A stretch of 64,000 bases of DNA, from the sequence record NC_052653.1; one strand, written 5' to 3'. Shown in pieces: positions 704-20,805 of this stretch. How positions within the stretch are numbered: position 1 is the stretch's first letter; each line of letters begins with the position of its first letter. Origin of the DNA: Escherichia phage vB_vPM_PD06. Made by a program: the position numbers and the translations under genes. The notes under the pieces are model-generated. The model was given only the letters and a program-made list of their open reading frames with translations. It had not been told where the DNA came from and did not search any database.

Positions 704-872
704 AGGGGAAGAAAATGCTTACAGATGATGAATATAAAGCTATCCAGGAAAAACTAACGGAGCTTGAAACTCTTGCTGCAAATCTTAAAGATCAATCACA
801 TGCTGGAAAGTTACTACGTCAAGAGATTAATAAAATTAAGCAGATGATATTCTTTTGGACGGAGGATTAAAA

Positions 873-3088: not shown

Positions 3089-3097
3089 GGAGAAAGT

Positions 3098-3304: not shown

Positions 3305-3318
3305 GAGAGGATCTTTAT

Positions 3319-3567
3319 ATGCGTAAAGTAAATGTTGAAGTGCTTGAAAAATTTAAAAACACTCGTGATTGTACTATTGGTAAGGTTTATGAGGCTATTC
3401 TCCTTGAAGATGGAGATATTGTTCCTGCCCCGTATCACGCCTTTAATGGTCAGGTTAGCAAAGTGGAAGGTGGTCTTGCTGTTTGCTTTATTGATGATGT
3501 AGGTGATGCTGTAGCTTTCCCTATCATTAACAAAGAAGATAAACTTAAAATTACAGAACTGAACTAG
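3319..3567 (+). CDS. hypothetical protein
   Basis: ORF track; RBS GAGAGG upstream. Confidence 0.4.
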   Translation: MRKVNVEVLEKFKNTRDCTIGKVYEAILLEDGDIVPAPYHAFNGQVSKVEGGLAVCFIDDVGDAVAFPIINKEDKLKITELN

Positions 3568-3595
3568 TTGACTTTCTTTAAAAACAGTTTATAGT
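3568..3595 (+). promoter_or_regulatory. sigma70-like promoter (TTGACT, 16 nt, TATAGT)
   Basis: -35 TTGACT at 3568-3573 and -10 TATAGT at 3590-3595; followed by a hairpin GCGGAGG-ATTGT-CCTCCGC at about 3607-3626 in the leader of the TerC-like gene. Confidence 0.45.
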
Positions 3596-3644
3596 ATACG
3601 ACATATAGCGGAGGATTGTCCTCCGCATTAAAGAGGAGAAAAGA

Positions 3645-4622: not shown

Positions 4623-4630
4623 TTCATTAA

Positions 4631-4650
4631 GCCCCTTCGGGGGCTTTGTT
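4631..4650 (+). terminator. rho-independent terminator
   Basis: GCCCC-TTCG-GGGGC hairpin followed by TTTGTT. Confidence 0.55.
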
Positions 4651-4661
4651 GAGGTGATCTG

Positions 4662-4868
4662 ATGGTGGTTTTACGTGTTCTTTGGATTCTGTTTGAAAAT
4701 ATTTGTTTTGCTTTAGGGTTATTTTGTTTGATTTTTATCTTGACAACATACATTGATAACCATACAATTACTATCAACAGGAACGGAGAACAGATGTATT
4801 GTTTCTCTAGGGATTTTAAAAATTGTGTCGAGACTTTAAATGAGAGGGTTACAAATGAAAAACATTAA
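4662..4868 (+). CDS. hypothetical small hydrophobic protein
   Basis: ORF track; hydrophobic N-terminus; GAGGTG precedes the start. May be spurious. Confidence 0.3.
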   Translation: MVVLRVLWILFENICFALGLFCLIFILTTYIDNHTITINRNGEQMYCFSRDFKNCVETLNERVTNEKH

Positions 4869-5445
4869 ATCTTTTATTGTTGCAGTTGTTTTAGGTAGTG
4901 CATTGCTGGTAGGTTGTGATGATTCTGAAAATGTACAAAACCAACGTTACCAACAAACACCAAATCAGATGGTAGATGAACAATATGTAAATCAACCTGC
5001 ACCTCAAGTTGTTCAAGCAGCACCTGCACAACCTTCAACAGTTGTTGTGCAAGGAGGCGGTAGTGGTTCTTCTGGTGTAGGTGAATTTGCTACAGGTATG
5101 CTTCTTGGTCATATGTTGAGTGGTAATAGTGGCGGTGGTGGTTATAGAGATGGCGGTAGCAATACAACAATTATTAATAACAACGCTGCTCCTACAACTA
5201 ACAGTAAATCATATACAACACAAAAGCATAGTTTTTATGATAAACAAGGGAATACATATACAACAACTAAACAAAACACAATTAAGCAGCAAAGTGTACA
5301 AACGTATTCACGCCCATCAACAACAAAAGTGAATAGTGATTACTCTGCTCGTAAGTCTTACTCAAGCCCTATTAGCTCTTATAGTAAGTCTTCGAAAAGT
5401 TATTCTTCGTCGAAACGTAGTTTTAGTAGCTCACGTCGTCGTTAA
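4855..5445 (+). CDS. predicted lipoprotein with Ser/Tyr/Thr-rich low-complexity tail
   Basis: Start set at MKNIK (4855). Signal peptide ending in lipobox LLVGC, then Gly-rich and S/Y/T/K-rich sequence ending SSSRRR. Confidence 0.5.
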   Translation: MKNIKSFIVAVVLGSALLVGCDDSENVQNQRYQQTPNQMVDEQYVNQPAPQVVQAAPAQPSTVVVQGGGSGSSGVGEFATGMLLGHMLSGNSGGGGYRDGGSNTTIINNNAAPTTNSKSYTTQKHSFYDKQGNTYTTTKQNTIKQQSVQTYSRPSTTKVNSDYSARKSYSSPISSYSKSSKSYSSSKRSFSSSRRR

Positions 5446-5480
5446 TAATTTAATACAGATTAAATAAGAAGGAGAAACAG

Positions 5481-6332
5481 ATGAAACTAGAAGTTGGTAA
5501 AGTGTATCGCCTGGAAGGTTGGATCTTTAATCAAGAAATTCTTGAGAAGAATAAAGATGGTTTTGAGTTTGTTGGTACTACCAAAGAAAGTATGCACGAT
5601 GACGAATACTGTAAATTCGTTGGTAAAAATACAGGTCAAGAACAATTTTGCTTTAAAAGCGCAATCGGTGATTATGCTTCTGTAATGCCAACGCCAGAAA
5701 AAACTTCGAAACAATATACTGTCTTTGGTGTAAAACTTGAAGAGCTTGTAGAACACCCACGTTTTGAAGAGTTTAAGGTTGCTGCAATGTGCAAGCATTC
5801 TGAAATTAAGATACATAATTTGTTTGATTTAGAAGATCGGTTTGATATCTTTATGTATGATCGCAGGGGAAAGCATTTTGATGCAACGACTTCAAAATTT
5901 GCTGCAACAGAGGATATTAAAATCCTTGATGTTGATACCTTTCTTGAGAGTGTATCGTTTGTATTCATTCCTAAATACAAAAAACGTAGTGATCATAAAC
6001 GTGTGAAAGGAACTCCTCGTAAAAAACGTACTGTAAACAAAGCAACTTTGCACTTCACTTCTGGTGATAAATATACTCTCAAAGGGTTTGAAAGTGTTTT
6101 GTATGATGCGGGAACGGGTAATATCAAGTTTATCATTAAGGCAACCTACAAAGGTACGGTATTGCACGAAGAGGCTGTTACACTACCTGTATTCGATATC
6201 TCTCGTGTTGAGGTACGGGGTGTTAAAGAGTCCTTCGATCTGGATTTCTTAACCACTAATGCTACTGGTTATGTTAACCTGGAAGCAGATGGAGCATTTA
6301 TTACTACAAATTATTTAGATATGTTTGTTTAA
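5481..6332 (+). CDS. hypothetical protein
   Basis: ORF track; RBS AAGGAGAAAC; no motif recognised. Confidence 0.5.
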   Translation: MKLEVGKVYRLEGWIFNQEILEKNKDGFEFVGTTKESMHDDEYCKFVGKNTGQEQFCFKSAIGDYASVMPTPEKTSKQYTVFGVKLEELVEHPRFEEFKVAAMCKHSEIKIHNLFDLEDRFDIFMYDRRGKHFDATTSKFAATEDIKILDVDTFLESVSFVFIPKYKKRSDHKRVKGTPRKKRTVNKATLHFTSGDKYTLKGFESVLYDAGTGNIKFIIKATYKGTVLHEEAVTLPVFDISRVEVRGVKESFDLDFLTTNATGYVNLEADGAFITTNYLDMFV

Positions 6333-6400
6333 TACTTAATTTGTGTTATGATGGTGGTACAGAGGTATCACCATCTACTAAAGAATATGGAGGAAATTGA

Positions 6401-7504
6401 ATGTCCAGTCCTTTTATCAGTGCCGTAAAAAGCAAACCGTCTGAAACGAGTGTATTCACGGCAACAACAGAAAAAAGTAAGTCTTTGTTTGCTCCAAGTG
6501 CTATGGATGCAAGCCCTGTATATGCCCCTGCTGTTGCACGACCTGTACAAATGCTGCCTCCAATGTCTCGTGAAGAGATTGAACAGGTTGGTGCTGATGC
6601 AGGACTTACTCTTCGTAACCTTAATGCGGAAGTGCTTAAACACCAGCGTTCATCTCAGGGAGATGAAATGAGTGAGCGTTTAACCGCACTTATTAAGCAA
6701 GCAAAGCAACTTGATCCTAATTCTATTAAACAATCTAAAGGTTTAGGTAAGCTAGTTAAGAAAGTATTAGGTATGAAAGAAGATTTGTTTGGAGAATTTG
6801 ACACCATCAATAATCGTATTGAAGGTTTGGTAAAGACACTCCAAACAGACTTGAAAAAAGAAGAAGATTCTTTACGATATCTGCAACGTTTAGAAGAGGC
6901 TATTGCAAAATATGCTCTTAGCTTAAACAGGGATATAGAGCTTCTAACAGCTACTTATGAAAAAGAAGAAGTTCACCTTAATACACTACCTGAAAATGAA
7001 GTAGAAGAGCGTCAACGTACTCGTGATACTATGGATCTGCTTGAAATTCGTATTGCAGACCTGAAAGCCTTGCGTTTACTGTGTGTTCAGATGGGGCCAC
7101 GTGTACAAAGTATGCAGAAAGTATCTGCAAGTTTGATGCGATCAGCCCGTAATATTGTGAATAATGTTATTCCTGCTTACTCTGCAAACTTTTCTATGTA
7201 TATTGAAAGTCTACGCCAGAAGAAAGCAGCCGATACACAGAACAATGTACTGAATGAATTTAATGCTGCTATTGCAATGGGTAGTGATCTGGCTGCACAA
7301 AACCAAATTGAAGCTACACAACTTGCTAATCGTCAAGTATTGGATATTGAGACATTACGTCGCGATCAAGAAAACTTAGTTAAAATGTTGGAAGAAACTA
7401 ATCGGATCAACACTGAAGCCCGTGCTGCTCGTATTGATTACATTCAAGAAGTGCAATCTCTTGAAGATGGTATGATTCAAACTGTTAAACGTGGTCTACT
7501 TTAA
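6401..7504 (+). CDS. TelA-like (toxic anion resistance family) protein, tentative
   Basis: 367 aa, largely helical/coiled-coil sequence of the size expected for TelA/KlaA proteins; call rests mainly on co-location with TerC-like, TerD-like and vWA genes. Confidence 0.4.
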   Translation: MSSPFISAVKSKPSETSVFTATTEKSKSLFAPSAMDASPVYAPAVARPVQMLPPMSREEIEQVGADAGLTLRNLNAEVLKHQRSSQGDEMSERLTALIKQAKQLDPNSIKQSKGLGKLVKKVLGMKEDLFGEFDTINNRIEGLVKTLQTDLKKEEDSLRYLQRLEEAIAKYALSLNRDIELLTATYEKEEVHLNTLPENEVEERQRTRDTMDLLEIRIADLKALRLLCVQMGPRVQSMQKVSASLMRSARNIVNNVIPAYSANFSMYIESLRQKKAADTQNNVLNEFNAAIAMGSDLAAQNQIEATQLANRQVLDIETLRRDQENLVKMLEETNRINTEARAARIDYIQEVQSLEDGMIQTVKRGLL

Positions 7505-7517
7505 GGAGAAATATATT

Positions 7518-7724
7518 ATGAATATTAAAATTTACAAACTGTCTGGTTCTATGATCGCTGTCCAGTACGACAATGAAGATCGTTATGTTCTCCTCCAGGA
7601 TGCTTGGTTAGATGATCCTAATGTATTTACTGTCCTGCGAGAACTACGTTCTGTCTATACCTATTCTTCTAAAGATGGTTTTGATAGTTCAACGATGGAT
7701 TTGGTAAAAGAGGAGAATGTGTAA
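7518..7724 (+). CDS. hypothetical small protein
   Basis: AGGAG RBS before internal ATG 7518 (listed ORF 7491). Confidence 0.4.
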   Translation: MNIKIYKLSGSMIAVQYDNEDRYVLLQDAWLDDPNVFTVLRELRSVYTYSSKDGFDSSTMDLVKEENV

Positions 7725-7927
7725 TGAATAAAGATATTCACTTAACTCGTGAAGAATTACAAACCATTATGGAAGATGCTTTCATTGATGGTTGGAAACA
7801 ATGTCAAGAGTCAAATTGGTATGATGCCGAAAACTTTTTGTATTATCATATGACTGCACCTGTAGACGAGCCAACACATTCTGAAACAACTTTGGCCTTA
7901 ATTGATCTTAAGGCTGGTGTATTTTAG
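7724..7927 (+). CDS. hypothetical small protein
   Basis: ORF track; AGGAG at 7711-7715. Confidence 0.4.
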   Translation: MNKDIHLTREELQTIMEDAFIDGWKQCQESNWYDAENFLYYHMTAPVDEPTHSETTLALIDLKAGVF

Positions 7928-8011
7928 TTGTAACTATCTCTTTAAACGAGTTACAAAAGATCACCAGAGAGGCTTTCTATTTAGGCTGGAGGGCAGGTAA
8001 AGGAGAAGACA

Positions 8012-8281
8012 GTGCTTAAATTTAATATCAAAGACGATAAATCAGATGAACCTAAATGTTTTGGAGAACTTGACGCAGGTGATACATTCGTATATTATGT
8101 TGCGTATCAAGATTCTGGTTTAGATACGTTCAGAAACTTAGTGTTTATTAAAGTTAATACAAACCAAGCAATGTGTCTGAACGGTTCACAAAGAGGTCAA
8201 CTTAGCTGTATTTCATATGATACAGAAATGGTAGAAGTGGATTTAGAAGTTACTAACATTACACTCAGAAAGGAGAAATAA
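8012..8281 (+). CDS. hypothetical small protein
   Basis: GTG start with AGGAG at 8001-8005. Confidence 0.4.
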   Translation: MLKFNIKDDKSDEPKCFGELDAGDTFVYYVAYQDSGLDTFRNLVFIKVNTNQAMCLNGSQRGQLSCISYDTEMVEVDLEVTNITLRKEK

Positions 8282-8282
8282 T

Positions 8283-9077
8283 ATGTCCAATAAAATCAGT
8301 CTTAAAAAACGTCAAGAAACTCTTACTGTATCTCTGCGTAAGAAAAAGATTAACGATGTTGTTCTTCGTGTCGGTAGCGCCTTAGATATTTCGGGTAGTA
8401 TGTGTGAGCTGTATCGTGATGGCACTGTTAGTGATTTTGTAGGTAAACTGCTGCCGTTTGGTATGAAGTTTGATGACAATGCACAGATTGACATGTGGGC
8501 TTTCAATAGTTCTTCTTTTGAACTGCCTCCTGCAACGGCTGATGTGTATGATGATTATGTCGGCTCTTGCATGTCTAATGTTTGCATCAACGGTGGTACT
8601 GCTTATGCTCCAGTAATGCAAGAGATCTATGATACATACTTCGGTAGTGTACCTATGAAAAATATTACACGCGAAGTCGTTGAGTATGAAGAAGTCCCGG
8701 CTAAGGGTTTCCTTGCTAAACTAACTGGTAAAAAAGAACTTGTAGAAGTAACACGTACTATTGTAGAACAGGTTGTAGATACTGATGCACAAGTTGATCG
8801 TACTCCTGCAATGATTTTCTTCCAAACTGACGGGGAAAACATGGATACTTCAGCAGTACGTAGCTTACTGAACAAACACCGCAATACGCCTGTTTACTGG
8901 TTTATGGTTGGTGTAGGTAATGCAAACTTTAAATTCCTGAAAGACTTGGCAAAAGAGTACGATAATGTTGATTTTATCGGTATTGCAGATTTGTCCTTGT
9001 CTGATGAAGAACTTTACGATAAACTGTTATCCGAAGAGTTTGGTGAGTGGGTTAAAAAATTCGGAGCAAAAGCGTAA
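8283..9077 (+). CDS. von Willebrand factor A (vWA) domain protein, TerY/TerF-like
   Basis: MIDAS-like DISGSM (DxSxS) near the N-terminus, downstream threonine-containing and acidic blocks; N-terminal ISLKK..VSLRKK echoes the start of the TerD-like protein. Confidence 0.55.
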   Translation: MSNKISLKKRQETLTVSLRKKKINDVVLRVGSALDISGSMCELYRDGTVSDFVGKLLPFGMKFDDNAQIDMWAFNSSSFELPPATADVYDDYVGSCMSNVCINGGTAYAPVMQEIYDTYFGSVPMKNITREVVEYEEVPAKGFLAKLTGKKELVEVTRTIVEQVVDTDAQVDRTPAMIFFQTDGENMDTSAVRSLLNKHRNTPVYWFMVGVGNANFKFLKDLAKEYDNVDFIGIADLSLSDEELYDKLLSEEFGEWVKKFGAKA

Positions 9078-9084
9078 AAAACGC

Positions 9085-9112
9085 TTGACTTTGTAGAAAA
9101 GATTAGTAAAAT
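9085..9112 (+). promoter_or_regulatory. sigma70-like promoter (TTGACT, 16 nt, TAAAAT)
   Basis: -35 TTGACT at 9085-9090 and -10 TAAAAT at 9107-9112, upstream of the TerD-like gene. Confidence 0.4.
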
Positions 9113-9149
9113 AGACAACGTAAATTAACAACAAAGGAGATAATAAATT

Positions 9150-9746
9150 ATGACTCAGAAAATTTCCCTGAAAAAAGGTTCTAGCGAAAAAGTTTCTCTG
9201 AAAAAGATCGCACCAGCACTGAAACGCATTCGTCTGGAATTCTCTTGGAAATCTAACGAAAAACTGGATCTGGATGTTAGTGCTCTGATTTGCCGACACA
9301 ATGCATCTGGTCTGCCGGAACTGTTGTCTCCTCGTCACCTGGTGTGCTACGCGCAGAAATTTGATCCTGAACGTTCTACTTTTGCAGGTGAAGATGTTCG
9401 TGATGGTGTAGGACAGATGGAGCAGATTGATGTTACACTGGATAATATCTCTGCTGAAGCACAGGAAATTGCATTCGTAATTACTATTGATGACGAAACG
9501 GGTAAGAAACGCCTTGGTCACGCTACCGAAGGTTTCCTTAAAATCTTCGATGATGAACGTAATGTTGAACTGCTGGACTTTGACTTCTTGGCTCCAGAAC
9601 TTGCAGGTAACACCATTTGCCACGTTGCCTCCCTGGTGCGAGAAGATAGCGAATGGAAACTGAAAGCGTATGGTGTAGGTAAAGCTGGGCTTGACATTTA
9701 CGATGTAGTTAAAGCGTTTGGCGCTGGCGACGATTGGTTCGAGTAA
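9150..9746 (+). CDS. terD: TerD-domain protein
   Basis: N-terminal ISLKKGSSEKVSLKK, LDLDVSALIC and acidic clusters (FAGEDVRDGVGQMEQIDVTL) match the TerD/TerZ/TerE fold pattern. Codon usage is conspicuously CTG/CGT/CCG/GAA-rich compared with neighbours. Confidence 0.7.
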   Translation: MTQKISLKKGSSEKVSLKKIAPALKRIRLEFSWKSNEKLDLDVSALICRHNASGLPELLSPRHLVCYAQKFDPERSTFAGEDVRDGVGQMEQIDVTLDNISAEAQEIAFVITIDDETGKKRLGHATEGFLKIFDDERNVELLDFDFLAPELAGNTICHVASLVREDSEWKLKAYGVGKAGLDIYDVVKAFGAGDDWFE

Positions 9747-10505: not shown

Positions 10506-11015
10506 TTGTCAATAAAAACCTTTGTCGCAATTGCGTTACTATCCTTAACTGCTTTTACATTTACACCTGTTGTGGCGCAAGCCGAAGCTGCAAACGTAAA
10601 AACTGCTAAAGTAGTTCACAAGTGTACAAAGCGTGATAGTAAAGAAAATCTATTAGCTTGTGCAATCTATGCAGAAAGTCGTAATCAAGGAAAGCGCGGT
10701 ATGTCTGCTGTTGGTAATGTAGTATTGAATAGGGCTAGAGATTCATATTTCCCTGATACTATAAAAGAAGTTTTGTTTCAGAAAGGACAATTCTCTTACA
10801 CGAAGACATTCAACGTTATGGAACACGATAAGTGGAAGGAAGCTAAGGCTATAGCAGAACGTCTACTTTATCTCGATAACCATTTTCCAGAACTACGAAT
10901 TGCATTAGATATTACAAAAGGAGCATTATACTTTAAAAAATCTACAATAAGAGCACACTGGGAAAAAGATATGGTTCTAGTGTACCGCTACAAAGAACAT
11001 CAATTCTATCGCTAA
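10506..11015 (+). CDS. secreted SleB-type cell-wall hydrolase; endolysin candidate
   Basis: TTG start after AGGAGG; N-terminal signal peptide (AFTFTPVVAQAEA); CAIYAESRNQGKRGMSAVGNVVLNRA and QKGQFS resemble the SleB/Hydrolase_2 family. Confidence 0.55.
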   Translation: MSIKTFVAIALLSLTAFTFTPVVAQAEAANVKTAKVVHKCTKRDSKENLLACAIYAESRNQGKRGMSAVGNVVLNRARDSYFPDTIKEVLFQKGQFSYTKTFNVMEHDKWKEAKAIAERLLYLDNHFPELRIALDITKGALYFKKSTIRAHWEKDMVLVYRYKEHQFYR

Positions 11016-11534: not shown

Positions 11535-11706
11535 TACTGGTGAAGTTGTAAAATCTTGGGATGATCTTAGTGGTATCCCTACAGATAAACTGATTAAACT
11601 GCGTGATGTTTGTCGTGATCATCTTAATGAAACATATAAAGAGTATATGGAAGCACGAGATCACAGTTTAGCTATCCAAATGGAACTCGCAAAACGTAAT
11701 CAATAG
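11512..11706 (+). CDS. hypothetical small protein
   Basis: ORF track; RBS AAGGAGG. Confidence 0.4.
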   Translation: MKTIGINDTGEVVKSWDDLSGIPTDKLIKLRDVCRDHLNETYKEYMEARDHSLAIQMELAKRNQ

Positions 11707-11763
11707 GTAAAACCATTTGGACTTTTTAGTCTAAAAATGCTAAAGTAATAATACGGAGGGAGT

Positions 11764-12327
11764 ATGATATTTCACATAACTCCCTATCTTTCTGGAGATA
11801 TTGGAAAAGGTATCAATGACACAATAAGTGTCTTACCAGAAGATAGTTGGATTTGCCTAAGAGACATTGATACAATGTTTCTTCTTCCAGAACAACCTGC
11901 TTGGTTGGAATCAATAGTCCGTTCAAATCCTGATTTTGATGTTCTTGGTGCATCTTGTAATAGATTGGGATCAACATATCAATTATTTAATAATGAAAGA
12001 AGTGAAGATCCAAATATATTACACCACATTGAGATTGCAAAAAGAGCACATCTAGAATGGGGAAACTCAATAGAGGAAGTACCTACAGATGCTATCTTAG
12101 CAGGATTCTTTCTTCTCTTTCGTAAGAGTCTGTGGAATGAAATCCCTTTTGAGGAAAGATCAATACAGTTTGATATAATTTTCTCTAAAGCATTACACGC
12201 TAACAATAAAAGGCTAGGTTTACTACGTGGGTTATATTTATTTCACACATACCGTTTAGGTAATGATGATCCTAGAAAAGCTGTTTCACACCTTTTACAT
12301 TGTCAAGACATGAATAAAATTATTTAA
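11764..12327 (+). CDS. hypothetical protein
   Basis: ORF track; RBS GGAGGGAG. Confidence 0.45.
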   Translation: MIFHITPYLSGDIGKGINDTISVLPEDSWICLRDIDTMFLLPEQPAWLESIVRSNPDFDVLGASCNRLGSTYQLFNNERSEDPNILHHIEIAKRAHLEWGNSIEEVPTDAILAGFFLLFRKSLWNEIPFEERSIQFDIIFSKALHANNKRLGLLRGLYLFHTYRLGNDDPRKAVSHLLHCQDMNKII

Positions 12328-12336
12328 GGAGTTATT

Positions 12337-13023
12337 TTGGAAAATACAAAAATTGGTGTTGGTGTTATTACTGTAGGTAAGCGTCCTCTTAAAGATTATC
12401 TTGTGACTGATCCTAATGCTACTTTTGTTGTGCAGTATGATCGGGAACGAAAAGGTGTTGCATATGCCCGTAATGAACTGATGAAAAAGTTTTATGATGA
12501 AGGGTATGATTACTGGTTTATTTTTGATGATGATTGCTATCCGGTTGTGCCAGGTTGGGAAACATATTTTGTAAAACAGGCTAAGGAAAATGGTTGGGAT
12601 TTCTTTGGTATGCCTGAATATTTTAAAGATAAAGTAAAAGGTATTGAGGGTGAAGTGGTTATTTGGGAACTAGGTATGTGTCAGTTTGGTATGTATTCCC
12701 GTGCAGTTATTGAGAAAGCTGGCTATTTCCGCTCATACACCCACGGTTATGGATATGAAGATGCAGAGTGGATTCAGCGCGTTCCACTGGCAGGTTTGAA
12801 CCGAGGTATTCAGGGCGTACCATGTCCTATTCGAATTATGGCGTTTATCCATCCTGACGATGTGTTTGGAGATAATCCTTTACCTTTTGCGAATCTGTCA
12901 AAAGAAGAGAAAGAACAGGGGATTGGTGTAAACTGGGAACAATATAAACAATCACTGGAGGATCTTCGCAATGGTAAAACTTTTATCTCTTATGAGGAGG
13001 CTCAAAAATATGGTAAGTGCTAA
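12337..13023 (+). CDS. hypothetical protein, possible DXD-type glycosyltransferase
   Basis: TTG start with AAGGA RBS; DYWFIFDDDCYP could be a DXD motif. Weak call. Confidence 0.3.
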   Translation: MENTKIGVGVITVGKRPLKDYLVTDPNATFVVQYDRERKGVAYARNELMKKFYDEGYDYWFIFDDDCYPVVPGWETYFVKQAKENGWDFFGMPEYFKDKVKGIEGEVVIWELGMCQFGMYSRAVIEKAGYFRSYTHGYGYEDAEWIQRVPLAGLNRGIQGVPCPIRIMAFIHPDDVFGDNPLPFANLSKEEKEQGIGVNWEQYKQSLEDLRNGKTFISYEEAQKYGKC

Positions 13024-13984
13024 TACTCCTGTACTTAAGTGTGATAATAAGTTAGGCAGTGGTTGTGATTACCATCGTATTGTAATGCCGTTTGCGGGAA
13101 ATACGTTCAAACCTAAGAAAGACGTTTTAGTTTTTAATAGAGTGTACTCTCGTGGATCAGACGAGGTTAAACGCCTGAAGGCACAAGGTGTTAAGATTAT
13201 TGTTGACTTAGATGACTTTTATTCACTTAATCCTGAACATTATATGGCTGGCGTATTTACTAATCACTCAAAGACTATTGTAGAGATGGTTAAGTTAGCA
13301 GATGTTGTTACAGTAACAACAGAATACCTGGCTTACAAAATTCGTCATTTAAACCGTAATGTTGTCGTTATTAGAAACGCACTACCTTACGACGAAGGTC
13401 AATTTACTTTGACAAAAGACCGTTATTCTGACACGCCTATTATTTGGGCTGGAGGAGCAAGCCATGAACCTGATTTATCTCTTGTAGCTAATACATTTGA
13501 TGATACACTATTGACAATTGCAGGGTATGAAGTGTATCCTTCTGCACCTGTTGGAAATAATAGTCAGTATCTAACTACTGCGGAGTGGGTTAAAATAAAA
13601 CGTAAAATTCCAAATGCACAGTATAAACCAGCTATTAAAAATTTAGGTGAGTATATGTCTGTGTATGACGGTCACAGTATTGCAATTGCTCCTCTGGTAG
13701 ATAATGACTTCAACAACTGTAAAAGCAATTTGAAGATTTTGGAAGCAGGTGCAAAGGGTCTTCCTATTATCTGTTCTCCTGTGCTGCCGTACTTCAATCC
13801 GGTAGATGCAAAGGCTGTTATTTATGCAGACTCTAAAGCATCTTGGCATTATGAAGTTGTCAAGCTAATGAGGAACCCTAGATACACAGAAGATCGTGGT
13901 ATGATGCTTGCAGAACACGTTCGTCTTAATTATAATCTTGCAGATGCCAATGAACTGCGTCGTCAAGTTATTGAAAGTCTTTAA
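13010..13984 (+). CDS. glycosyltransferase-like protein, paralog 1
   Basis: Start set at ATG 13010 (GAGGAGG RBS). Shares blocks with the next gene (CDYHRIVMPF vs CDFHRIILPY; IAPLVDNDFNNCKSNLKILEAGAKGLPIICSP vs IAPLVNNHFNNAKSNLKILEAGAKGLPLVCSP); the last block resembles the C-terminal E..G motif of GT-B glycosyltransferases. Confidence 0.45.
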   Translation: MVSANTPVLKCDNKLGSGCDYHRIVMPFAGNTFKPKKDVLVFNRVYSRGSDEVKRLKAQGVKIIVDLDDFYSLNPEHYMAGVFTNHSKTIVEMVKLADVVTVTTEYLAYKIRHLNRNVVVIRNALPYDEGQFTLTKDRYSDTPIIWAGGASHEPDLSLVANTFDDTLLTIAGYEVYPSAPVGNNSQYLTTAEWVKIKRKIPNAQYKPAIKNLGEYMSVYDGHSIAIAPLVDNDFNNCKSNLKILEAGAKGLPIICSPVLPYFNPVDAKAVIYADSKASWHYEVVKLMRNPRYTEDRGMMLAEHVRLNYNLADANELRRQVIESL

Positions 13985-13995
13985 CAAGGAGCCAT

Positions 13996-14940
13996 ATGCC
14001 TAATATTATTCTTGACACACGTGGACATGAGAGGTATAGTGTATGTGATTTTCATAGAATCATTTTGCCATATAAACGCAAACTGACCATTAATCCTAAG
14101 CATAATATTTTTGTGTTCAATGGAGTACCAACTCGTGGAAAGCCAGGTTTCCTGGCTCTTAAACAACTTGGGTTTAAATTGGTAATGGATCTGGATGATT
14201 CTTTAATTATTCCTGAAGGGCATATGCTTGAAGGATTATTTGAAAATCAAATCCGAGATGACCTAAAATGGTTCCTTGAAAGAAGCGATCTTGTAACTAC
14301 AACAACTCCAGCATTAAAGGTTGAATTAAGCCAATACAATGATAATGTACATATTGTGCCTAACGGACTACCTTTTGATGAAGGACAGTTTGTTCTTACG
14401 AAAGATCGTTATTCTAAAAGTCCACTGGTTTGGGCGGGAAGTGAAACACATAAACATGATTTAGCAATTCTCCCTGCTTTTGGTAAAGAGTTAACTTTAT
14501 GTGGATTTCGTAGAGATCACGAAGAGTTAAGTAGTGCTCAATGGTTGCAAATTAAAGAAGAGATTCAACCAGATTGTGTTTATGAAGGTATTCGTCCTTA
14601 TGAGTGTTATATGGAAGCATACGATGGTCATCAAATCTCCATAGCTCCATTAGTAAATAATCATTTTAATAATGCCAAAAGTAATTTAAAAATTCTTGAA
14701 GCTGGTGCTAAAGGTTTGCCACTCGTTTGTTCACCAAGAGAGAACTATTATACTGAAGAGTTTAAAGATCTAATCTTCTTTGCTGATTCAGTTAAAGAGT
14801 GGAAAGATATTGTAGAATACTTAATCGAATCTCCTGATGTTTGTATTGAGAAAGGATTGGCTCTTGCTAAGTATGTAAGAGATAACTACAATATTGATGA
14901 TTTAAATGAAACCCGCAGACTGCTTATCGAGGATTTATAA
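13996..14940 (+). CDS. glycosyltransferase-like protein, paralog 2
   Basis: Tandem paralog of 13010..13984 with the same conserved blocks; RBS AAGGAG. Confidence 0.45.
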   Translation: MPNIILDTRGHERYSVCDFHRIILPYKRKLTINPKHNIFVFNGVPTRGKPGFLALKQLGFKLVMDLDDSLIIPEGHMLEGLFENQIRDDLKWFLERSDLVTTTTPALKVELSQYNDNVHIVPNGLPFDEGQFVLTKDRYSKSPLVWAGSETHKHDLAILPAFGKELTLCGFRRDHEELSSAQWLQIKEEIQPDCVYEGIRPYECYMEAYDGHQISIAPLVNNHFNNAKSNLKILEAGAKGLPLVCSPRENYYTEEFKDLIFFADSVKEWKDIVEYLIESPDVCIEKGLALAKYVRDNYNIDDLNETRRLLIEDL

Positions 14941-15209
14941 TGAACACTTTTGATTTTGAGTATAAACAAGATAATAAAGAACCTATTATTGTTGAAGTAG
15001 ATTACTATTATGAAGAACCTAATCCTTTCTCACGAGAAAGTGATTGGGATTATTATGGTGGCCTTATTGTTGATGGTATTAGGTTCTATTCTGGTACAAA
15101 AGAACTTTTTGATATAGATATTTCCCCATCGGAAATTGTTTACCAATTTAAGAAACATATGGAAGATTTGGAAATGCAATATATTATGGAGACAAACGAA
15201 TCATTTTAG
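14940..15209 (+). CDS. hypothetical acidic small protein
   Basis: ORF track; ATG overlaps the upstream stop. Confidence 0.4.
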   Translation: MNTFDFEYKQDNKEPIIVEVDYYYEEPNPFSRESDWDYYGGLIVDGIRFYSGTKELFDIDISPSEIVYQFKKHMEDLEMQYIMETNESF

Positions 15210-15221
15210 TAGGAGAATCAT

Positions 15222-16994
15222 GTGTCTTATGTTGTAAATAAATATGGGTATAACATTGACCTAAGTCAAGAAGGACATACTGGGTGTCCTCGTTGTATGA
15301 AAGGAGGGCGTGATCGATCACAAAACAATTTGATGGTATACGGCTTAGATGCCGATGAAGACCATCGAGGCGCACATTGTTTTTCTTGTGGCTTTACTAT
15401 CCCTGATCAAAAATGGTTAAATGCACACGGCGAAGAAATTGAAGAGGAGGATATCTTGGGTAGTGAGTTTAATCCAGAAGTACATGATAAACTAAAAGCC
15501 AGCACTGGAACTAATCCAAAAGGTTATCGCGGTATTCGTGAAGATATCTCTAAACCTTTCGGTGTACGCTATATGTACGATGAAGCTACTGGCGAAGTAA
15601 TTTCAACACTATACCCTACAACTAAAGATTACAATATTGCTGGGTATAAACAACGTATTGATCCAAAAGATTTTTCGCATCCTATCGGTGAAACAGGAAA
15701 GGATTGTGATCTCTTTGGGGAGTTTAAATATCGTAACCACAGCGGTACTATTCTAATCGTTGGTGGTGAACACGATATGCTGGCTGCAACACAGATGCTA
15801 AAAGATTATAACAAGGGCGGTAAATATCCTGTTCCTGCTGTAGTATCTGGTACTTGTGGCGAAACATCTCTGCATAAGCAGCTTCAACATCGTTATAAAT
15901 TCTTAGATCAATTTAAAAAGATTGTTCTGTGTATGGATAATGATGAAGCTGGACGTGCAGCAGTTGAGAAATGTGTTAAAATCTTACCACGTAATAAAGT
16001 TTACGTGATGGAACTAACAGATGTTAAAGATCCTAACCAGGCACTAGTAGAAGGAAAAATTGATCACTTTCTTGATCGCTTTTTCAAAGCTAAACTGTAC
16101 ACACCTGCTGGTGTTTATGCTTCTAACGTACTGTATGAAGCAGCCTTGGAATGTCTGGAAGCTAAAATGATTACTCTTCCTCCATTCATGCGTGTTGCTT
16201 CTAATATGTTAGGTGGAGGCTTGGTAGAAGAAGAAATTACTGTTATACTTGCAAAAACAAGTATTGGTAAGACACTGTTGGTTAACGAGATTACGAAACA
16301 CATTATTCTTGCACACCCAGAACATACTCTTGGTATTTTATCTTTGGAGGCAACGTATAAGAAGTATTCTCGTAACTTACTGTCTTCATTCTTGCACATC
16401 CCTCTTCACCGTAAAACAAAAGAAGAGAAGGAAAAGATTTTAAAAGATAATGAAGAAAAGATTCGTGATTTTTACGAACGAGAAGATGGAACACCACGTT
16501 TCTATGTTTGTGATGATCGTGGAGCTAACGTAGATGTGATTAAAGAGAAGGTTCTGGAAATGATTATTTATTTCGGAGTAACCATTCTTGTTATCGACCC
16601 TTATTCTGATTTGCTTTCTGGTATGGACGTGTCACAACAAGAGGAACTTGCGACGTGGCTCAAACGCATTATGAAAGAGTACGCAATTACCATTGTTGTA
16701 ATTTCACACGTTAAAAAGTCTTCTAACAATAGTAATGAACATATTGTAGAAGATGATGCAATGGGTAGTAGCTTCCTTGCTAAAGGTGCTGGTATCACAA
16801 TTGCGCTGGAGCGTGATAAACAAGCTGAAGATCCTATGGAACGTAACCGCACATATTGCTACATTCTAAAGAACCGTGAGTTCTCAGAGACTGGTGCAGC
16901 AGGTAGTTTCTTCTATGAGATTAAAACAGCTACACTTCACGATTACGATCAATACACAAGTAACCCAGAGAATATTCCTGATGGTTCTTATTAA
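15222..16994 (+). CDS. DNA primase-helicase (zinc ribbon, TOPRIM and DnaB-like helicase domains)
   Basis: GTG start after AGGAGA. N-terminal Cys4 zinc ribbon (CPRCMKGG...CFSCGF); TOPRIM-like acidic blocks (IVGGEHD, CMDNDEAG); P-loop AKTSIGKT; Walker-B-like ILVIDPYSD. Confidence 0.75.
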   Translation: MSYVVNKYGYNIDLSQEGHTGCPRCMKGGRDRSQNNLMVYGLDADEDHRGAHCFSCGFTIPDQKWLNAHGEEIEEEDILGSEFNPEVHDKLKASTGTNPKGYRGIREDISKPFGVRYMYDEATGEVISTLYPTTKDYNIAGYKQRIDPKDFSHPIGETGKDCDLFGEFKYRNHSGTILIVGGEHDMLAATQMLKDYNKGGKYPVPAVVSGTCGETSLHKQLQHRYKFLDQFKKIVLCMDNDEAGRAAVEKCVKILPRNKVYVMELTDVKDPNQALVEGKIDHFLDRFFKAKLYTPAGVYASNVLYEAALECLEAKMITLPPFMRVASNMLGGGLVEEEITVILAKTSIGKTLLVNEITKHIILAHPEHTLGILSLEATYKKYSRNLLSSFLHIPLHRKTKEEKEKILKDNEEKIRDFYEREDGTPRFYVCDDRGANVDVIKEKVLEMIIYFGVTILVIDPYSDLLSGMDVSQQEELATWLKRIMKEYAITIVVISHVKKSSNNSNEHIVEDDAMGSSFLAKGAGITIALERDKQAEDPMERNRTYCYILKNREFSETGAAGSFFYEIKTATLHDYDQYTSNPENIPDGSY

Positions 16995-17490: not shown

Positions 17491-20400
17491 ATGGGAGCTT
17501 TTACTTTCGACATTGAAAGTAACAACTTGCTTAATGACGAAAGTGTAGATTACTTGGCAAGTCCATATCGTTTAAAAGATAGTTTTGCAATGCACTGTAT
17601 TGTGTGCGAAAGTCATGATACTGGAGAGATTATTGCTTTCCATGATGGTGATAAATATCTTTTCGATGGTCGTCCGTATATTGAGACTGACGGAAAGTAT
17701 GAATACCGACTGGAGGAATATGAGCATTTAGAATATACCCATTTCCCTCTTAAAGATTTTCCTGATTTTGTAAATGGAACAGGTAAATTTAAAGGTAATT
17801 CAAACTATAAAATTACCAAAGTAGTTGGACACAACATCATTAACTTCGACTTACTGGCAATTAAATTATTTTTTAAACTCAACTACAGTATTAAGTACAA
17901 TACTTGGGGTAATAGTAACATTGAAATTTGTGATACTATGATCTTAAGTAAGACACTAAACCCTGATCGCTTCGGTGGTCATAGTCTGGCAGAGTTATCT
18001 AAGAAAGCTGGAGGGGATGTTAAAATTGATTTTAGAAAAAACATTCCTGAAACTGAAAGATTTAGAACATTTGCAGCAGATATGCTGTATTACTGTATTT
18101 ACGATAACAAAGCTAACACCGCAGTGTTCCGTTATTTGATGGAAGAGTGGGGTGATTATAACAAGTGGTCTGAACCATTTAACTTAGAACAACGTGTAGC
18201 TGATATTATTACACGTCAAGAGCACCGTGGCTTTGCTTTCAATATGAAACAAGCAGAAGATAATATTCGTGATCTGGATGCTCGAATGGAAGCATGTCGT
18301 TTAGAGGCAGAACCTGTGCTACCTCCTAAACCTGCTACTAAAGGTTATTTGAAATCATTCATTCCACCTAAACTACAGTTTAAAAAGAATGGTGAGCCTT
18401 CAAGTAACATGATAAAGTTTGCAGAGAAACATTCTGGTGAACTTGTACAAAAAGAAGATGGTTGGTGGTTATTTGCATTAGGTAAAGAGTTTAAACTACC
18501 TATTCCAGCAGAAGAACCTATTTGTGATCCTACAGTACCTGCTACTTTAGACGACACTACACATATTAAAAATTGGTTAGTTGGTTTAGGTTGGAGTCCA
18601 TCTGAATATAAAGATAAAGATATCACTCTTAAATCTGGCACTAAGATTAAGAAAGATGAAGCACAAATGGAGAAAGCTATTCGTGACTATGTTGATCAAA
18701 CATTAGCATCTAACTTCTGCCAGGATAGATGTGATCATCTGGAGTGCACACCAGAAACTTTGGAATGGAAACTAAGAGATCGTATTGCTAAAGCTAAAGG
18801 TCGTGGTGTTAAAGTGCTTACTAACCCTTCCTTTACAAAAGGGCAAGAGAAGGATATTTGTCCTAACTTGGAAGCACTGGGTGAAAAGTTCCCTTATGCT
18901 ACGCAGATTGTGCAGTATCTTACGTATAAACATCGTAGAAACTCTATTCTAGGTGGTGGTGCTGATTGGGAAGAGGATGAAGAGGATTACGATAAAGGTT
19001 ATCTGGCGGCAGTAAGAGCTGATGGTCGTATACCAACTCCTGCTGCAACGTGTGATGCAGCTACGTCTCGTATGAAACATAGGTTAGTAGCAAATATCCC
19101 ACGTGTAACATCTCTGTACGGATATGAAATGCGTAACTTATTTGGTGTAGAAGTTCCAAAATACTTCCAAATTGGTTATGACTTTGATTCTCTTGAGGCA
19201 AAAATAGAATCACACTACTGTGTACCTATGGATGCACAAGCACTAACCCGTAAAGGTTGGGTTGGTTATCACGATCTACAAGAAGGGGATGAAATCTTAG
19301 GATATAACCCAGAAACAGGACTTAAAGAATGGACTAAAGTAAAAGGTAAGGTCTTCTATAAAAATAGTAAGACGTTTGAGATTAAAGGAAAATCCCATAC
19401 TTATCGTGCAACAGCAGATCACCGTTGGTATGTTAATACTCGTAGTACAGGGAATACTTATGTGCCTAAAGTCAGAACAACTGCCGAGCTTTGCACAGGA
19501 GATAACATTATTTGTAATGCTCCATTTAACATGGAACAAGATCAAGTAAATAGTTTAACTTCTGTTCAACAAGGTAAATGGGATGTTCCGTGGGTAGAAC
19601 GTGTAGTTAATATGTCTCATGCCGAGCGTGTGGCTTTCTTGGAAGGTTTTTTGATTGCGGATGGTTACTGGCACAAACATAAACAAAAACCTGTTTGGCG
19701 CTGGGCGCAGAACCCAGGAGAACTTTTTGAAGCAGCCTTAACTGCCTCATACCTGGTTCATGGGGGTAATATTTCTGTAGCCTTCAATACGAAAGACCAG
19801 AAAGTAAAAGTGGCAACGTTGGCTAACCGCTCTCACATCCCTGTTCAAAGTCTGACTATTGAAGAATGGGGTGTAGAAGATGTTTGGTGTCCACAAACAG
19901 AACTCGGTACATGGGTTATGCGTCAGAAAGACTGCATCACGATTACAGGGAATTGTTGGCGGTACGAGCAGGAACCACACGAATATTGTAATGCTCTATT
20001 GTTGGAAAAACCTAATGATGTTCATACAATGATGGCTCGACGTATTTCTGACACTATTGGTCGTAAGTTTGAACGAAGCCCTGCTAAATCTGTTAAGTAT
20101 GGTATTACTTATGGTGCTCAAGCTGCAAAAGTAGCAAAAACTATAGGTAGTGATATGTATACAGGACAGCTTGTATACGATGCTTTCTGGGAAGCTGCAA
20201 AACCTCTTGCGCTTCTTAAAGAACGTCTGCATGACTTTTGGGTTAAAACAGGTAAGAAATACATTCTTGGTATTGATGGTAGGAAAGTACCTACACGATC
20301 TGCACACGCAATACTTAACTCTCTGTTCCAGAGTGGTGGTGTTATTTGTGCAAAAAGAGCAATGGTTATCTACGATGATCTTATCGAAGAAGAAGGATTA

Positions 20401-20805
20401 GCTGTTGACTTTTTTGTTGATGACTGGAAAAATAAGTCATTCGTTCAACAAATGATTGCATATCACGATGAAGCACAGCTTGAAGTAACTCGTGATCTGG
20501 TGCATTTTAAATGGTTCTCTAAAGAATCTTTAGGTTGGACTCAAGTTGATGATCCAGAAGAACAAAAGAAAATTGATAAAGAATGTTTGGATAAAGTTAA
20601 TGCCTGGAAAGAAGAGGAAGAGAAACGTACTGGCAAGATTTGGGCTAACGTACATGAATCTCCGAAAGGTGGTTGGTTTACAGCCTACAGTCGTGCTGGA
20701 GAATTAGCATCTATCGCTGTTAATAAAGCTGGTGAGTATTACAATCTTAATGTACCTCTAACTGCTGGTTACGATGTTGGTAGTTCATGGTCAACTTGTC
20801 ACTGA
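17491..20805 (+). CDS. family A DNA polymerase with 3'-5' exonuclease domain, interrupted by an intein
   Basis: FDIESN (Exo I DxE); polymerase motif A DFDSLEAKIESHY; motif B RRISDTIGRKF...KYGITYGA; motif C AYHDEAQLE. A 245-aa Hint/LAGLIDADG insertion lies between motifs A and B. Confidence 0.85.
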   Translation: MGAFTFDIESNNLLNDESVDYLASPYRLKDSFAMHCIVCESHDTGEIIAFHDGDKYLFDGRPYIETDGKYEYRLEEYEHLEYTHFPLKDFPDFVNGTGKFKGNSNYKITKVVGHNIINFDLLAIKLFFKLNYSIKYNTWGNSNIEICDTMILSKTLNPDRFGGHSLAELSKKAGGDVKIDFRKNIPETERFRTFAADMLYYCIYDNKANTAVFRYLMEEWGDYNKWSEPFNLEQRVADIITRQEHRGFAFNMKQAEDNIRDLDARMEACRLEAEPVLPPKPATKGYLKSFIPPKLQFKKNGEPSSNMIKFAEKHSGELVQKEDGWWLFALGKEFKLPIPAEEPICDPTVPATLDDTTHIKNWLVGLGWSPSEYKDKDITLKSGTKIKKDEAQMEKAIRDYVDQTLASNFCQDRCDHLECTPETLEWKLRDRIAKAKGRGVKVLTNPSFTKGQEKDICPNLEALGEKFPYATQIVQYLTYKHRRNSILGGGADWEEDEEDYDKGYLAAVRADGRIPTPAATCDAATSRMKHRLVANIPRVTSLYGYEMRNLFGVEVPKYFQIGYDFDSLEAKIESHYCVPMDAQALTRKGWVGYHDLQEGDEILGYNPETGLKEWTKVKGKVFYKNSKTFEIKGKSHTYRATADHRWYVNTRSTGNTYVPKVRTTAELCTGDNIICNAPFNMEQDQVNSLTSVQQGKWDVPWVERVVNMSHAERVAFLEGFLIADGYWHKHKQKPVWRWAQNPGELFEAALTASYLVHGGNISVAFNTKDQKVKVATLANRSHIPVQSLTIEEWGVEDVWCPQTELGTWVMRQKDCITITGNCWRYEQEPHEYCNALLLEKPNDVHTMMARRISDTIGRKFERSPAKSVKYGITYGAQAAKVAKTIGSDMYTGQLVYDAFWEAAKPLALLKERLHDFWVKTGKKYILGIDGRKVPTRSAHAILNSLFQSGGVICAKRAMVIYDDLIEEEGLAVDFFVDDWKNKSFVQQMIAYHDEAQLEVTRDLVHFKWFSKESLGWTQVDDPEEQKKIDKECLDKVNAWKEEEEKRTGKIWANVHESPKGGWFTAYSRAGELASIAVNKAGEYYNLNVPLTAGYDVGSSWSTCH
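19219..19953 (+). mobile_element. intein with LAGLIDADG homing-endonuclease domain, inside the DNA polymerase
   Basis: Starts at Cys (CVPMDAQALTRKGWVGYHDLQEGDEIL, Hint block A), block B TADHRWYV, LAGLIDADG-like ERVAFLEGFLIADGYW, ends ...ITGN followed by Cys. 735 nt = 245 codons. Removal joins motif A directly to CWRYEQ. Confidence 0.7.

Follow-up and report, generated by a model that had tools for sequence, protein, structure and literature searches.

Layout of the gene cassette

The window, i.e. the whole stretch of 64,000 nucleotides analysed here, belongs to a lytic coliphage of the genus Justusliebigvirus (phi92-like) and shows 98-99% DNA identity to 54 Justusliebigvirus records. Directly 5' of the primase/helicase and DNA polymerase genes it carries four tightly packed glycosyltransferase (GT) genes on one strand, followed by a small open reading frame:

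11764..12327, + strand: small probable GT-A-like glycosyltransferase, 187 aa (GT187); PHROG 14179, invariant D-x-D
12337..13023, + strand: GT-A fold (GT2-like) glycosyltransferase, 228 aa; invariant FDDD (DXD) and YG(Y/F)ED motifs
13010..13984 (ORF open from 12971), + strand: GT-B glycosyltransferase paralog 1, 324 aa from the ATG at 13010; PHROG 7162
13996..14940, + strand: GT-B glycosyltransferase paralog 2, 314 aa; PF13524, PHROG 7162
14940..15209, + strand: small acidic protein, 89 aa, pI 4.1; PHROG 4240 (function not assigned)

The initial annotation had placed the start of this unit at 12337 and thereby overlooked one of the four transferase genes; as the upstream gene matches PHROG 14179, the cassette begins at 11764. 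For paralog 1 we consider 13010 a likelier start than 12971, because a strong Shine-Dalgarno sequence (GAGGAGG) lies upstream of it, the homologs are 320-324 aa long and, counted from 12971, the PHROG match sets in only with residue 20. It is uncertain whether the small acidic protein is a cassette member. Its start overlaps the stop of paralog 2, and its homologs always lie directly 3' of GT genes, including the same position in Klebsiella phage KP2025 (49% identity) and in a metagenomic relative (L015). No terminator was predicted anywhere in the + strand run from 10.4 to 17.4 kb, and a promoter scan gave 33 matches compared to 26.6 ± 5.9 in shuffled sequence, i.e. no enrichment. A hydrophobic segment or membrane anchor is absent from all four GT proteins, and three of them are acidic. 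Since the phage's own DNA methyltransferase is acidic as well (pI 4.96), charge is uninformative as a test for DNA binding and was discarded.

The same four genes are found in conserved order, with 98-99% DNA identity over 11700-15300, in the phi92-like/phAPEC8-like phages phi92 (NC_023693), PHB05 (NC_052652) and EmilieFrey/Bas61 (MZ501063), and nothing of substance distinguishes the window from the published phi92-like cassette. The genes are already known and annotated as glycosyltransferases in public genomes: GenBank records of phi92-like relatives label either all four as "glycosyltransferase", or two as "putative glycosyltransferase" and two as "putative disaccharide synthase". Elsewhere in the window, an intein in the DNA polymerase sets this phage apart from some relatives. 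The cassette has also been tied to the phage dTDP-rhamnose pathway in the published literature, and a "putative dTDP glycosylation machinery" was described in phi92-like BASEL phages, yet without protection from restriction (PMC8594841). An experimental study of the genes was not found in the literature on phage rhamnosylation, Phapecoctavirus and rhamnose, virion glycosylation or Bas60-62, and the sequence records and papers searched contain no experimentally determined function.

Fold assignment of the four proteins

The profile and fold data make it very probable that all four genes encode genuine glycosyltransferases, with none of the four proteins matching NCBIfam. The tandem paralogy of the two GT-B genes, as originally noted, is borne out by 41% identity over 311 residues (E 3e-82). 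Both fall into PHROG 7162, which paralog 1 matches with an E value of 3e-149. Paralog 2 scores 26.8 bits against Pfam PF13524 (Glyco_trans_1_2) and thus lies above the cut-off of 25, whereas paralog 1 taken alone remains sub-threshold (14.4 bits), as do the Pfam GT1 models for this protein. The GT-B fold (GT4-like), with two Rossmann-like domains and an inter-domain cleft, is assigned confidently. All 15 family-invariant residues are retained in both paralogs (e.g. R21, D67, D68, N123, H152 and D155), and the C-terminal motif previously likened to GT-B enzymes proved to be real: K228, S229, K232 and E235 do not vary across 37 homologs, the two paralogs among them, and the donor-binding motif with its invariant Glu resides in "KSNLKILEAGAKGLP". 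The best fold matches are sucrose-phosphate synthase, BshA, PglH and PimA, whose substrates are small molecules or lipid-linked sugars and not proteins. Many of the top matches act on lipid-linked or wall glycans (PglH/WlaC, PglA, PimA, PimB, WaaG, WbnH, TarM). A PDB profile search with the family gave marginal hits only, namely trehalose and sucrose-phosphate synthases at E 0.01-0.05.

Single-copy and out-group homologs are all closer to paralog 1 than to paralog 2 (KP2025, 66% vs 38.5%; L015, 49% vs 41%; Burkholderia, 44% vs 36%). Judged by these sequence comparisons, paralog 1 is the ancestral copy and paralog 2 a lineage-specific duplicate, found in Justusliebigvirus and Phapecoctavirus.

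The possible DXD motif noted earlier in the gene at 12337-13023 was likewise substantiated, as the protein belongs to the GT-A enzymes and consists of a single Rossmann-like alpha/beta/alpha domain whose metal-binding motif, FDDD, is invariant. Among its fold matches, GlfT2, TarP, TarS and RmlT act on wall or lipid-linked glycans; RmlT and SpsA (crystallised with dTDP) share the fold, a likeness that does not fix donor specificity. A search of BFVD folds returned just generic viral GT2/GT25-like proteins, and a PDB profile search with the family yielded nothing meaningful.

GT187 is a probable GT-A-like glycosyltransferase, as predicted from its sequence family. The protein matches PHROG 14179 "glycosyltransferase" with an E value of 5e-113 and, in addition, the C-terminal half of PHROG 26101. 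Its family shares the invariant residues D34-x-D36, N66, R67, D137, H161 and H176. Pfam gives no match for the protein itself and sub-threshold GT2/GT21 matches in 8 of 46 homologs; alignment to the profile of the 228-aa GT-A protein by hhalign is weak (probability 10%), and a PDB profile search with the family produced nothing meaningful. A deep HMMER search recovered 664 representative homologs, many of which are fused to TOD1/MUCI70 GT-like, GT2 or Methyltransf_24 domains. The fusions to TOD1-like GT and methyltransferase domains indicate a role in glycan building combined with sugar tailoring.

Link to the rhamnose pathway

In a complete, 98%-identical genome, RmlB, RmlA, RmlC and RmlD were confirmed by Pfam; the corresponding genes fall outside the window. 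Across the phage subfamily the cassette is accompanied by genes for dTDP-L-rhamnose. GT187, GT-B and RmlC were searched by tblastn over 50,697 phage records and counted per genus. The counts are nearly identical for the three proteins, with 103/104/103 for Escherichia, 9/10/8 for Klebsiella, and 3/3/3 for both Justusliebigvirus and Phapecoctavirus. In the reduced cassette of Klebsiella phage KP2025, GT187 and a single GT-B form the conserved core and RmlC and RmlD are retained, while L015 carries an SDR sugar-nucleotide dehydratase/epimerase gene within its GT cassette. Cassette enzymes thus probably use phage-made dTDP-rhamnose as donor, although the co-distribution could also reflect mere shared ancestry within one subfamily.

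Proposed function and choice of acceptor

We tentatively propose that the cassette builds up, step by step, a glycan containing rhamnose on an acceptor other than DNA, our best guess being a structural protein of the virion. The four soluble cytoplasmic enzymes would form an assembly line in which each adds one sugar, at least one of them taking dTDP-rhamnose and the others UDP-sugars of the host. A short oligosaccharide with rhamnose among its sugars would result, carried by an acceptor produced in the infected cell; if this acceptor were a phage structural protein, as we presume, the virion would become glycosylated.

The choice of a virion protein as acceptor, which we regard as plausible at low confidence, is suggested by the genomic context of distant homologs. 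In L013, GT187-family genes lie in the head module between the terminase and portal/capsid genes, together with a GT2, a polysaccharide deacetylase and two Methyltransf_24 genes. In Cellulophaga phage phi17:1 GT187-family genes adjoin a Methyltransf_24 gene and are flanked by the gene for the MuF-like head protein on one side and the prohead protease/capsid genes on the other, and GT-B homologs are found directly 5' of terminase/portal/capsid genes in L012, L010 and a Streptomyces Zukovirus. Three of these five structural contexts are ambiguous, because the site upstream of terS in small phages also hosts morons and DNA-modification genes. In the phage studied here the cassette sits in the replication module and not beside structural genes, so that the placement expected of a virion cassette is seen in the distant homologs only. 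A homolog in Burkholderia dolosa adjoins, in a single case, an intimin/invasin-like gene, a context suggestive of adhesin glycosylation.

No report of glycosylated phi92-like virions was found in the literature searched. On a speculative reading, the cassette would provide the first case in which a phage of Gram-negative bacteria glycosylates its virion, one candidate site being the collagen-like tail fibre encoded at 26579-28549. Collagen-type G-X-Y runs occur in this tail fibre and in Cellulophaga phi17:1 and are absent from the other loci (partial). Given runs at two loci only, a systematic link between collagen repeats and the cassette was rejected.

Modification of a host surface glycan, which the initial annotation had offered as its alternative, is possible; the virion reading is better supported, and we consider the host envelope an unlikely target. 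Here, the transferases would act at the inner membrane face on undecaprenyl-linked or lipid A-core intermediates of O-antigen, ECA or the LPS core. The exported glycans would gain rhamnose-containing residues, whereby superinfection would be blocked or progeny kept off debris. In line with this, many of the top GT-B and GT-A fold matches act on lipid-linked or wall glycans, and phi92-like entry requires surface glycans and the LPS core (PMC8594841; PMC11990801). The lack of a membrane anchor in all four proteins and the acidity of three argue against it, and the phage annotation contains no flippase, polymerase or ligase. Moreover, homologs, often in head modules, are spread over phages whose hosts are not related (Streptomyces, Cellulophaga, a 735-kb megaphage), as would hardly be expected if the acceptor were a host-specific lipid. 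A strictly lytic life cycle also leaves little time for the cell surface to turn over.

Quite unlikely, in our view, is a soluble product or a role in host takeover. The enzymes would then make a free glycoside, attach sugars to a small metabolite, for instance the nucleoside-like compound postulated for Ter-associated PRTase/HAD modules, or modify a host protein or RNA. The name "putative disaccharide synthase" given to the GT-B genes by the BASEL annotators matches the free-glycoside version. Four different transferases and a dedicated rhamnose pathway, however, exceed what a disaccharide would need, homologs are present in other phages without Ter genes and within structural modules, and the data name neither a precedent nor a candidate acceptor.

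DNA as an unlikely acceptor

The initial annotation had also suggested that the GT genes, together with a DPPY methyltransferase at 23498-24229, serve DNA base glycosylation as a defence against restriction, and DNA glycosylation was raised by Olsen et al. (2020) as well. Rhamnose or other sugars would then be transferred onto bases of the replicating phage DNA, perhaps at sparse or sequence-specific sites. T4 alpha-GT (1y6f), T4 beta-GT (1c3j) and the T6/TET-associated glycosyltransferases (TAGT) are, like the cassette enzymes, phage-encoded, soluble users of nucleotide sugars with a GT-B (T4) or GT-A (TAGT) fold that are expressed with replication genes. The remaining evidence is unfavourable, and we regard this explanation as very unlikely.

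Firstly, the recommended comparison with the T4 glucosyltransferases turned out negative, as alpha-GT and beta-GT rank just 18th and 28th among the GT-B fold matches. A match to TAGT (PF20691) reaches 23.3 bits against a gathering cut-off of 27.5, covers profile positions 37-96, i.e. 60 of 205, and is confined to the generic nucleotide-binding/DXD segment. Secondly, no enzyme that would supply a hydroxylated base could be recognised. Phage J-01, which is 98% identical and completely annotated, has no hydroxymethylase, 5hoC synthase or TET/JBP among its listed genes, and its sole thymidylate synthase is a divergent ThyX and not of the ThyA type. A scan of the ten largest unannotated non-structural proteins, which small or very divergent proteins may escape, likewise revealed no TET/JBP or ThyA domain; neither survey found a TET/JBP dioxygenase of the kind expected alongside TAGT. 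The methyltransferase gene itself is real ("LILTDPPYAIS"; Pfam N6_N4_Mtase, E 2e-30). Located 8.5 kb downstream of the cassette, with the primase/helicase and DNA polymerase genes in between, it has no evident connection to the glycosyltransferases.

Thirdly, phi92-like phages do not behave as if their DNA were protected. Those of the BASEL collection proved "exceptionally susceptible" to restriction-modification systems (PMC8594841). Against Bas61 and Bas62, ARMADA II, which its authors think recognises unmodified DNA, achieves a 10^2-10^5-fold restriction, whereas hypermodified Straboviridae escape (PMC13463889). The first 12 phages of the Durham collection are described as having "non-modified genomes", and Paula, which GenBank assigns to Justusliebigvirus, is referred to as a Durham isolate. 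We infer that Paula is one of these 12 phages and identical to the BREX-sensitive phage "Pau" of Picton et al.; if so, this also speaks against DNA glycosylation. We therefore hold, with good confidence, that the cassette enzymes do not modify DNA in bulk. That they place rhamnose-containing glycans on DNA at sparse or sequence-specific sites, without a hydroxymethyl-pyrimidine precursor and unsampled by the restriction, BREX and ARMADA assays, is highly improbable; if true, it would represent a new type of DNA modification. Arginine rhamnosylation of the EF-P type and glycosylation of tRNA queuosine were dropped as targets, with nothing in their favour.

In conclusion, the cassette genes should not be read as an anti-restriction system of DNA in genome annotation. 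The phi92-like/phAPEC8-like phages are broad-host-range candidates for therapy and spend up to eight conserved genes, i.e. four transferases plus the rhamnose pathway, on a glycan. If this glycan is placed on the virion, it would affect how therapeutic phages are recognised by the immune system, bind to mucus and remain stable, and coliphages would join the actinophages as carriers of virion glycosylation. With the host envelope as target, the cassette would bear on superinfection exclusion and the design of phage cocktails.

Comparison with known glycosylation systems

Glycosylated virions have been described in mycobacteriophages, chloroviruses and giant viruses. Among phages, experimental proof of virion glycosylation comes from the mycobacteriophages, in which it is virus-encoded by GT operons of the Che8/Corndog type. 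These GT genes have no detectable sequence homology to the present cassette, and no mycobacteriophage was among the tblastn matches listed for GT-B paralog 2 and GT187 in the 50,697 phage records. No phage of the subfamily considered here is known to have a glycosylated virion protein. Rhamnose itself has precedents in viral glycans, as A064R of chlorovirus PBCV-1 combines rhamnosyltransferases with a methyltransferase and mimivirus employs virus-made rhamnose in the glycosylation of its fibrils. Among cellular systems, the spore-crust polysaccharide genes of Bacillus subtilis include CgeB of PF13524, SpsA, and SpsI-L for the dTDP-rhamnose pathway. Organism and acceptor proteins differ from those of the phage, and the likeness between the spore-crust genes and the cassette is one of family or fold only.

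A four-gene glycosyltransferase cassette

A 3.6-kb stretch spanning the glycosyltransferase genes shares 98-99% identity with 54 GenBank phage records, almost all of them Escherichia phages of the genus Justusliebigvirus (phi92-like, subfamily Stephanstirmvirinae; e.g. PHB05, ECGD1 and EmilieFrey, BASEL Bas61). Several records label the genes "glycosyltransferase" (x4), others two as "putative glycosyltransferase" and two as "putative disaccharide synthase"; the observation thus concerns public, named genes of predicted function. Four "Campylobacter phage" records (MG065639, MG065645, MG065650 and MG065656; host C. jejuni) are ~98% identical to E. coli Justusliebigvirus/Phapecoctavirus genomes and are probably mislabelled or contaminants. 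The genes named in the initial annotation are real, while a fourth, GT187, had been overlooked.

Genes of the glycosyltransferase cassette
11764-12327, +, GT187 (187 aa), probable minimal GT-A enzyme
12337-13023, +, GT-A (228 aa), predicted GT-A-fold glycosyltransferase
13010-13984, +, GT-B1, predicted GT-B-fold glycosyltransferase
13996-14940, +, GT-B2, predicted GT-B-fold glycosyltransferase

GT-B1 and GT-B2 are paralogous as initially proposed (129/311 identities, 41%, E 3e-82). GT-B1 most likely starts at 13010, the start given initially, where a GAGGAGG ribosome-binding site precedes the ATG; the resulting 324 aa is the usual homolog length and the PHROG alignment agrees. GT-B2 belongs to Glyco_trans_1_2 (PF13524), scoring over the curated Pfam cut-off, and a very confident AlphaFold model with 37 homologs as input (pLDDT 94.6, pTM 0.92) bears out the GT-B fold. 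The C-terminal block noted earlier, K-S-x-x-K-x-x-E, is invariant among these homologs and forms part of 15 residues invariant in the family and both paralogs, so that both copies look catalytically competent.

The DXD motif suspected upstream is found in GT-A as an invariant F-D-D-D, along with Y-G-(Y/F)-E-D. GT-A models as a GT-A domain (pLDDT 87.6) with GT2-like fold matches (GlfT2, ppGalNAc-T1, chondroitin polymerase, beta4GalT7, TarP, RmlT and SpsA). GT187 matches PHROG 14179 "glycosyltransferase" (E 5e-113), and HMMER, run in full against 1.8 billion representatives, yielded 664 relatives, many fused to a TOD1/MUCI70 GT-like, GT2 or Methyltransf_24 domain. D-x-D is invariant in this family, similarity to GT2/GT21 models is sub-threshold only, and its profile weakly matches that of GT-A. 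GT187 is taken here as a probable minimal GT-A enzyme.

A conserved 89-aa acidic ORF (14940-15209) and a primase/helicase gene are packed together with the four genes, with gaps of 9-12 nt or overlaps and no predicted terminator between them. The DPPY methyltransferase (23498-24229), likewise real, lies 8.5 kb from the cassette, with the primase/helicase and polymerase genes between them. The family A DNA polymerase ORF (17491-20805) carries a 245-aa in-frame insertion (19219-19953, +) lacking in the otherwise 99% identical polymerase of J-01, a complete genome 98% identical to the window phage. The insertion runs from a Cys to an Asn that precedes another Cys, and "LEGFLIADGY" within it resembles a LAGLIDADG motif; unflagged by Pfam, the insertion has the look of an intein containing a homing-endonuclease domain. 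A SleB-type cell-wall hydrolase (10506-11015, +; Pfam Hydrolase_2, E 6e-20), annotated as "endolysin" in relatives, is encoded upstream of the cassette at a distance of 750 bp; its N-terminus includes a hydrophobic segment resembling a signal. A complete Ter-like cluster (855-9746, +) stands just upstream of the cassette, and its gene order is kept in the distant metagenomic relative L015.

Ter-like cluster
855-1529, +, HAD hydrolase
1522-2379, +, ComF-like PRTase_3
2255-3088, +, Macro domain
3645-4622, +, TerC
6401-7504, +, TelA
8283-9077, +, vWA-TerF-like
9150-9746, +, TerD

Evolution and rhamnose link

By tblastn, GT-B occurs in 139 records among 50,697 phage genomes. Justusliebigvirus, Phapecoctavirus and the phiWec181 group carry it twice, a group of Klebsiella phages once; single distant matches fall in a 735-kb megaphage and Streptomyces Zukovirus. 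All single-copy or out-group homologs are nearer GT-B1 than GT-B2 (Klebsiella phage KP2025, 66% vs 38.5%; L015, 49% vs 41%; Burkholderia, 44% vs 36%), which identifies GT-B1 as the ancestral copy and GT-B2 as a derived duplicate, as judged from these identities. The Burkholderia homolog, chromosomal on B. dolosa contig JAIMDN010000082 (L005:3025-8440), follows an intimin/invasin-like autotransporter gene and a 571-aa gene lacking assigned function, a setting suggestive of bacterial adhesin glycosylation. KP2025 carries GT187 and one GT-B only, ahead of the same small ORF and primase, and the order in L015 is GT187, SDR dehydratase/epimerase, GT-A, GT-B, small ORF, primase. By gene content, the predicted core is thus GT187 plus GT-B1, to which GT-A and GT-B2 are additions. 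The KP2025 system (L007:8382-9924; L009:12836-14244) is a natural minimal version, useful experimentally.

Alongside its reduced cassette, KP2025 keeps RmlC and RmlD only. These would suffice, since enterobacteria, for their ECA synthesis, make dTDP-4-keto-6-deoxyglucose, on which RmlC acts. Genus counts in the phage database are nearly identical for RmlC, GT187 and GT-B, and the SDR gene within the L015 cassette is a sugar-nucleotide enzyme gene. Pfam confirmed RmlB, RmlA, RmlC and RmlD in J-01, ~75 kb from the cassette and thus outside the window. A complete dTDP-rhamnose pathway has been described in phi92-like and phAPEC8-like phages, with speculation on DNA glycosylation (Olsen et al., PMC7552041). 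Taken together, this supports, without proving, use of phage-made dTDP-rhamnose by at least one transferase.

The acceptor

None of the four proteins contains a hydrophobic segment; being soluble, they would act in the cytoplasm. The sole positive hints on the acceptor are the genomic contexts of distant homologs. Two unrelated phages carry GT187-family genes within their head-gene modules. In L013 the position is between terminase and portal/capsid, among GT2, polysaccharide deacetylase and two Methyltransf_24 genes and a UDP-galactopyranose mutase gene nearby, and in Cellulophaga phage phi17:1 between a MuF-like head protein and prohead protease/capsid genes, adjoined by Methyltransf_24. A 36-kb phage carries a homologous GT-A/GT-B pair directly upstream of terS-terL-portal-capsid; placements are similar in phage locus L010 and in Zukovirus, the latter with epimerase and methyltransferase. 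Larger glycan clusters, which include aminotransferases, dehydratases and Stealth-like genes, occur in other phages. Where glycans are built on proteins or polysaccharides, as by chlorovirus A064R, on mimivirus fibrils and mycobacteriophage capsids, or in the Bacillus spore crust with CgeB, SpsA and Sps rhamnose genes, sugar-tailoring enzymes and multi-GT fusions are typical; for known DNA modifications they are untypical. By this analogy and the head-gene contexts, we favour a phage structural protein as acceptor, on which the cassette enzymes would stepwise make a short rhamnose-containing glycan. Against this stand the position of the cassette in the replication module and the nearest solved folds, whose substrates are small molecules or lipid-linked sugars. 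Tblastn of GT-B2 and GT187 against the 50,697 phage records gave no mycobacteriophage among the organisms listed, so that no kinship with the enzymes studied experimentally in that group emerged; the literature searched contains no report of a virion glycoprotein in this phage group. The lateral tail-fibre protein (26579-28549, -) contains four short runs of collagen-like G-X-Y repeats in which GDK/GEK triplets abound, and phi17:1 also encodes a tail fibre with collagen repeats (L016:13786-16044); a systematic link could not be demonstrated.

Remodelling of the host envelope, initially proposed as a surface-glycan change, is a reading we consider unlikely. It is supported by the PglH, PimA, WaaG, TarP and RmlT-type fold matches and by the dependence of these phages on surface glycans; membrane anchors are missing from the proteins, however, and phages of unrelated hosts carry homologs. 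A soluble product or host-takeover target would fit the "disaccharide synthase" fold matches, as well as the cassette's conserved place downstream of a Ter-like cluster. We consider it quite improbable; four transferases exceed what such a product requires.

DNA base glycosylation, also proposed initially, we regard as very unlikely. As known in phages, it requires a hydroxylated base from a ThyA-family enzyme or TET/JBP dioxygenase. Neither is present in the full J-01 annotation, and no relevant domain occurs in its ten largest unannotated non-structural proteins. The sole J-01 "thymidylate synthase" is a divergent ThyX (Pfam Thy1 match; 35.5 bits vs the TIGR02170 cut-off of 87.9); this long protein (L004:44102-45073, 323 aa), with THR instead of the RHR motif, is the only one so named in the phage group. 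The TAGT match of GT-A is below threshold and confined to the generic nucleotide-binding/DXD segment, and among GT-B fold matches the T4 alpha- and beta-glucosyltransferases rank 18th and 28th and the HY126 DNA arabinosyltransferase 36th. [quoted passage not shown] ARMADA II, which in its authors' view recognises unmodified DNA, restricts Bas61 and Bas62 10^2-10^5-fold, while hypermodified Straboviridae escape (PMC13463889). According to a later paper, the first twelve phages of the Durham collection have "non-modified genomes". Paula, which GenBank lists as a Justusliebigvirus, has been cited as coming from Durham; we infer that it is among these twelve and is the BREX-sensitive "Pau". Together, these observations make bulk DNA glycosylation unlikely; sparse modification is possible.

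The genes and their glycosyltransferase label were already public, as were the link to rhamnose and the lack of protection from restriction. Our analysis adds the unit of four genes rather than two or three, the confident assignment of both folds, the probable ancestry of GT-B1 with a minimal core of GT187 and GT-B1 (with RmlC and RmlD), and the placement of relatives within phage head modules beside sugar-tailoring genes. The question of interest is what these widely used therapeutic-candidate phages glycosylate. With the T4 glucosyltransferases and the HY126 arabinosyltransferase, the cassette GT-B proteins share a fold kinship common to all GT-B enzymes.
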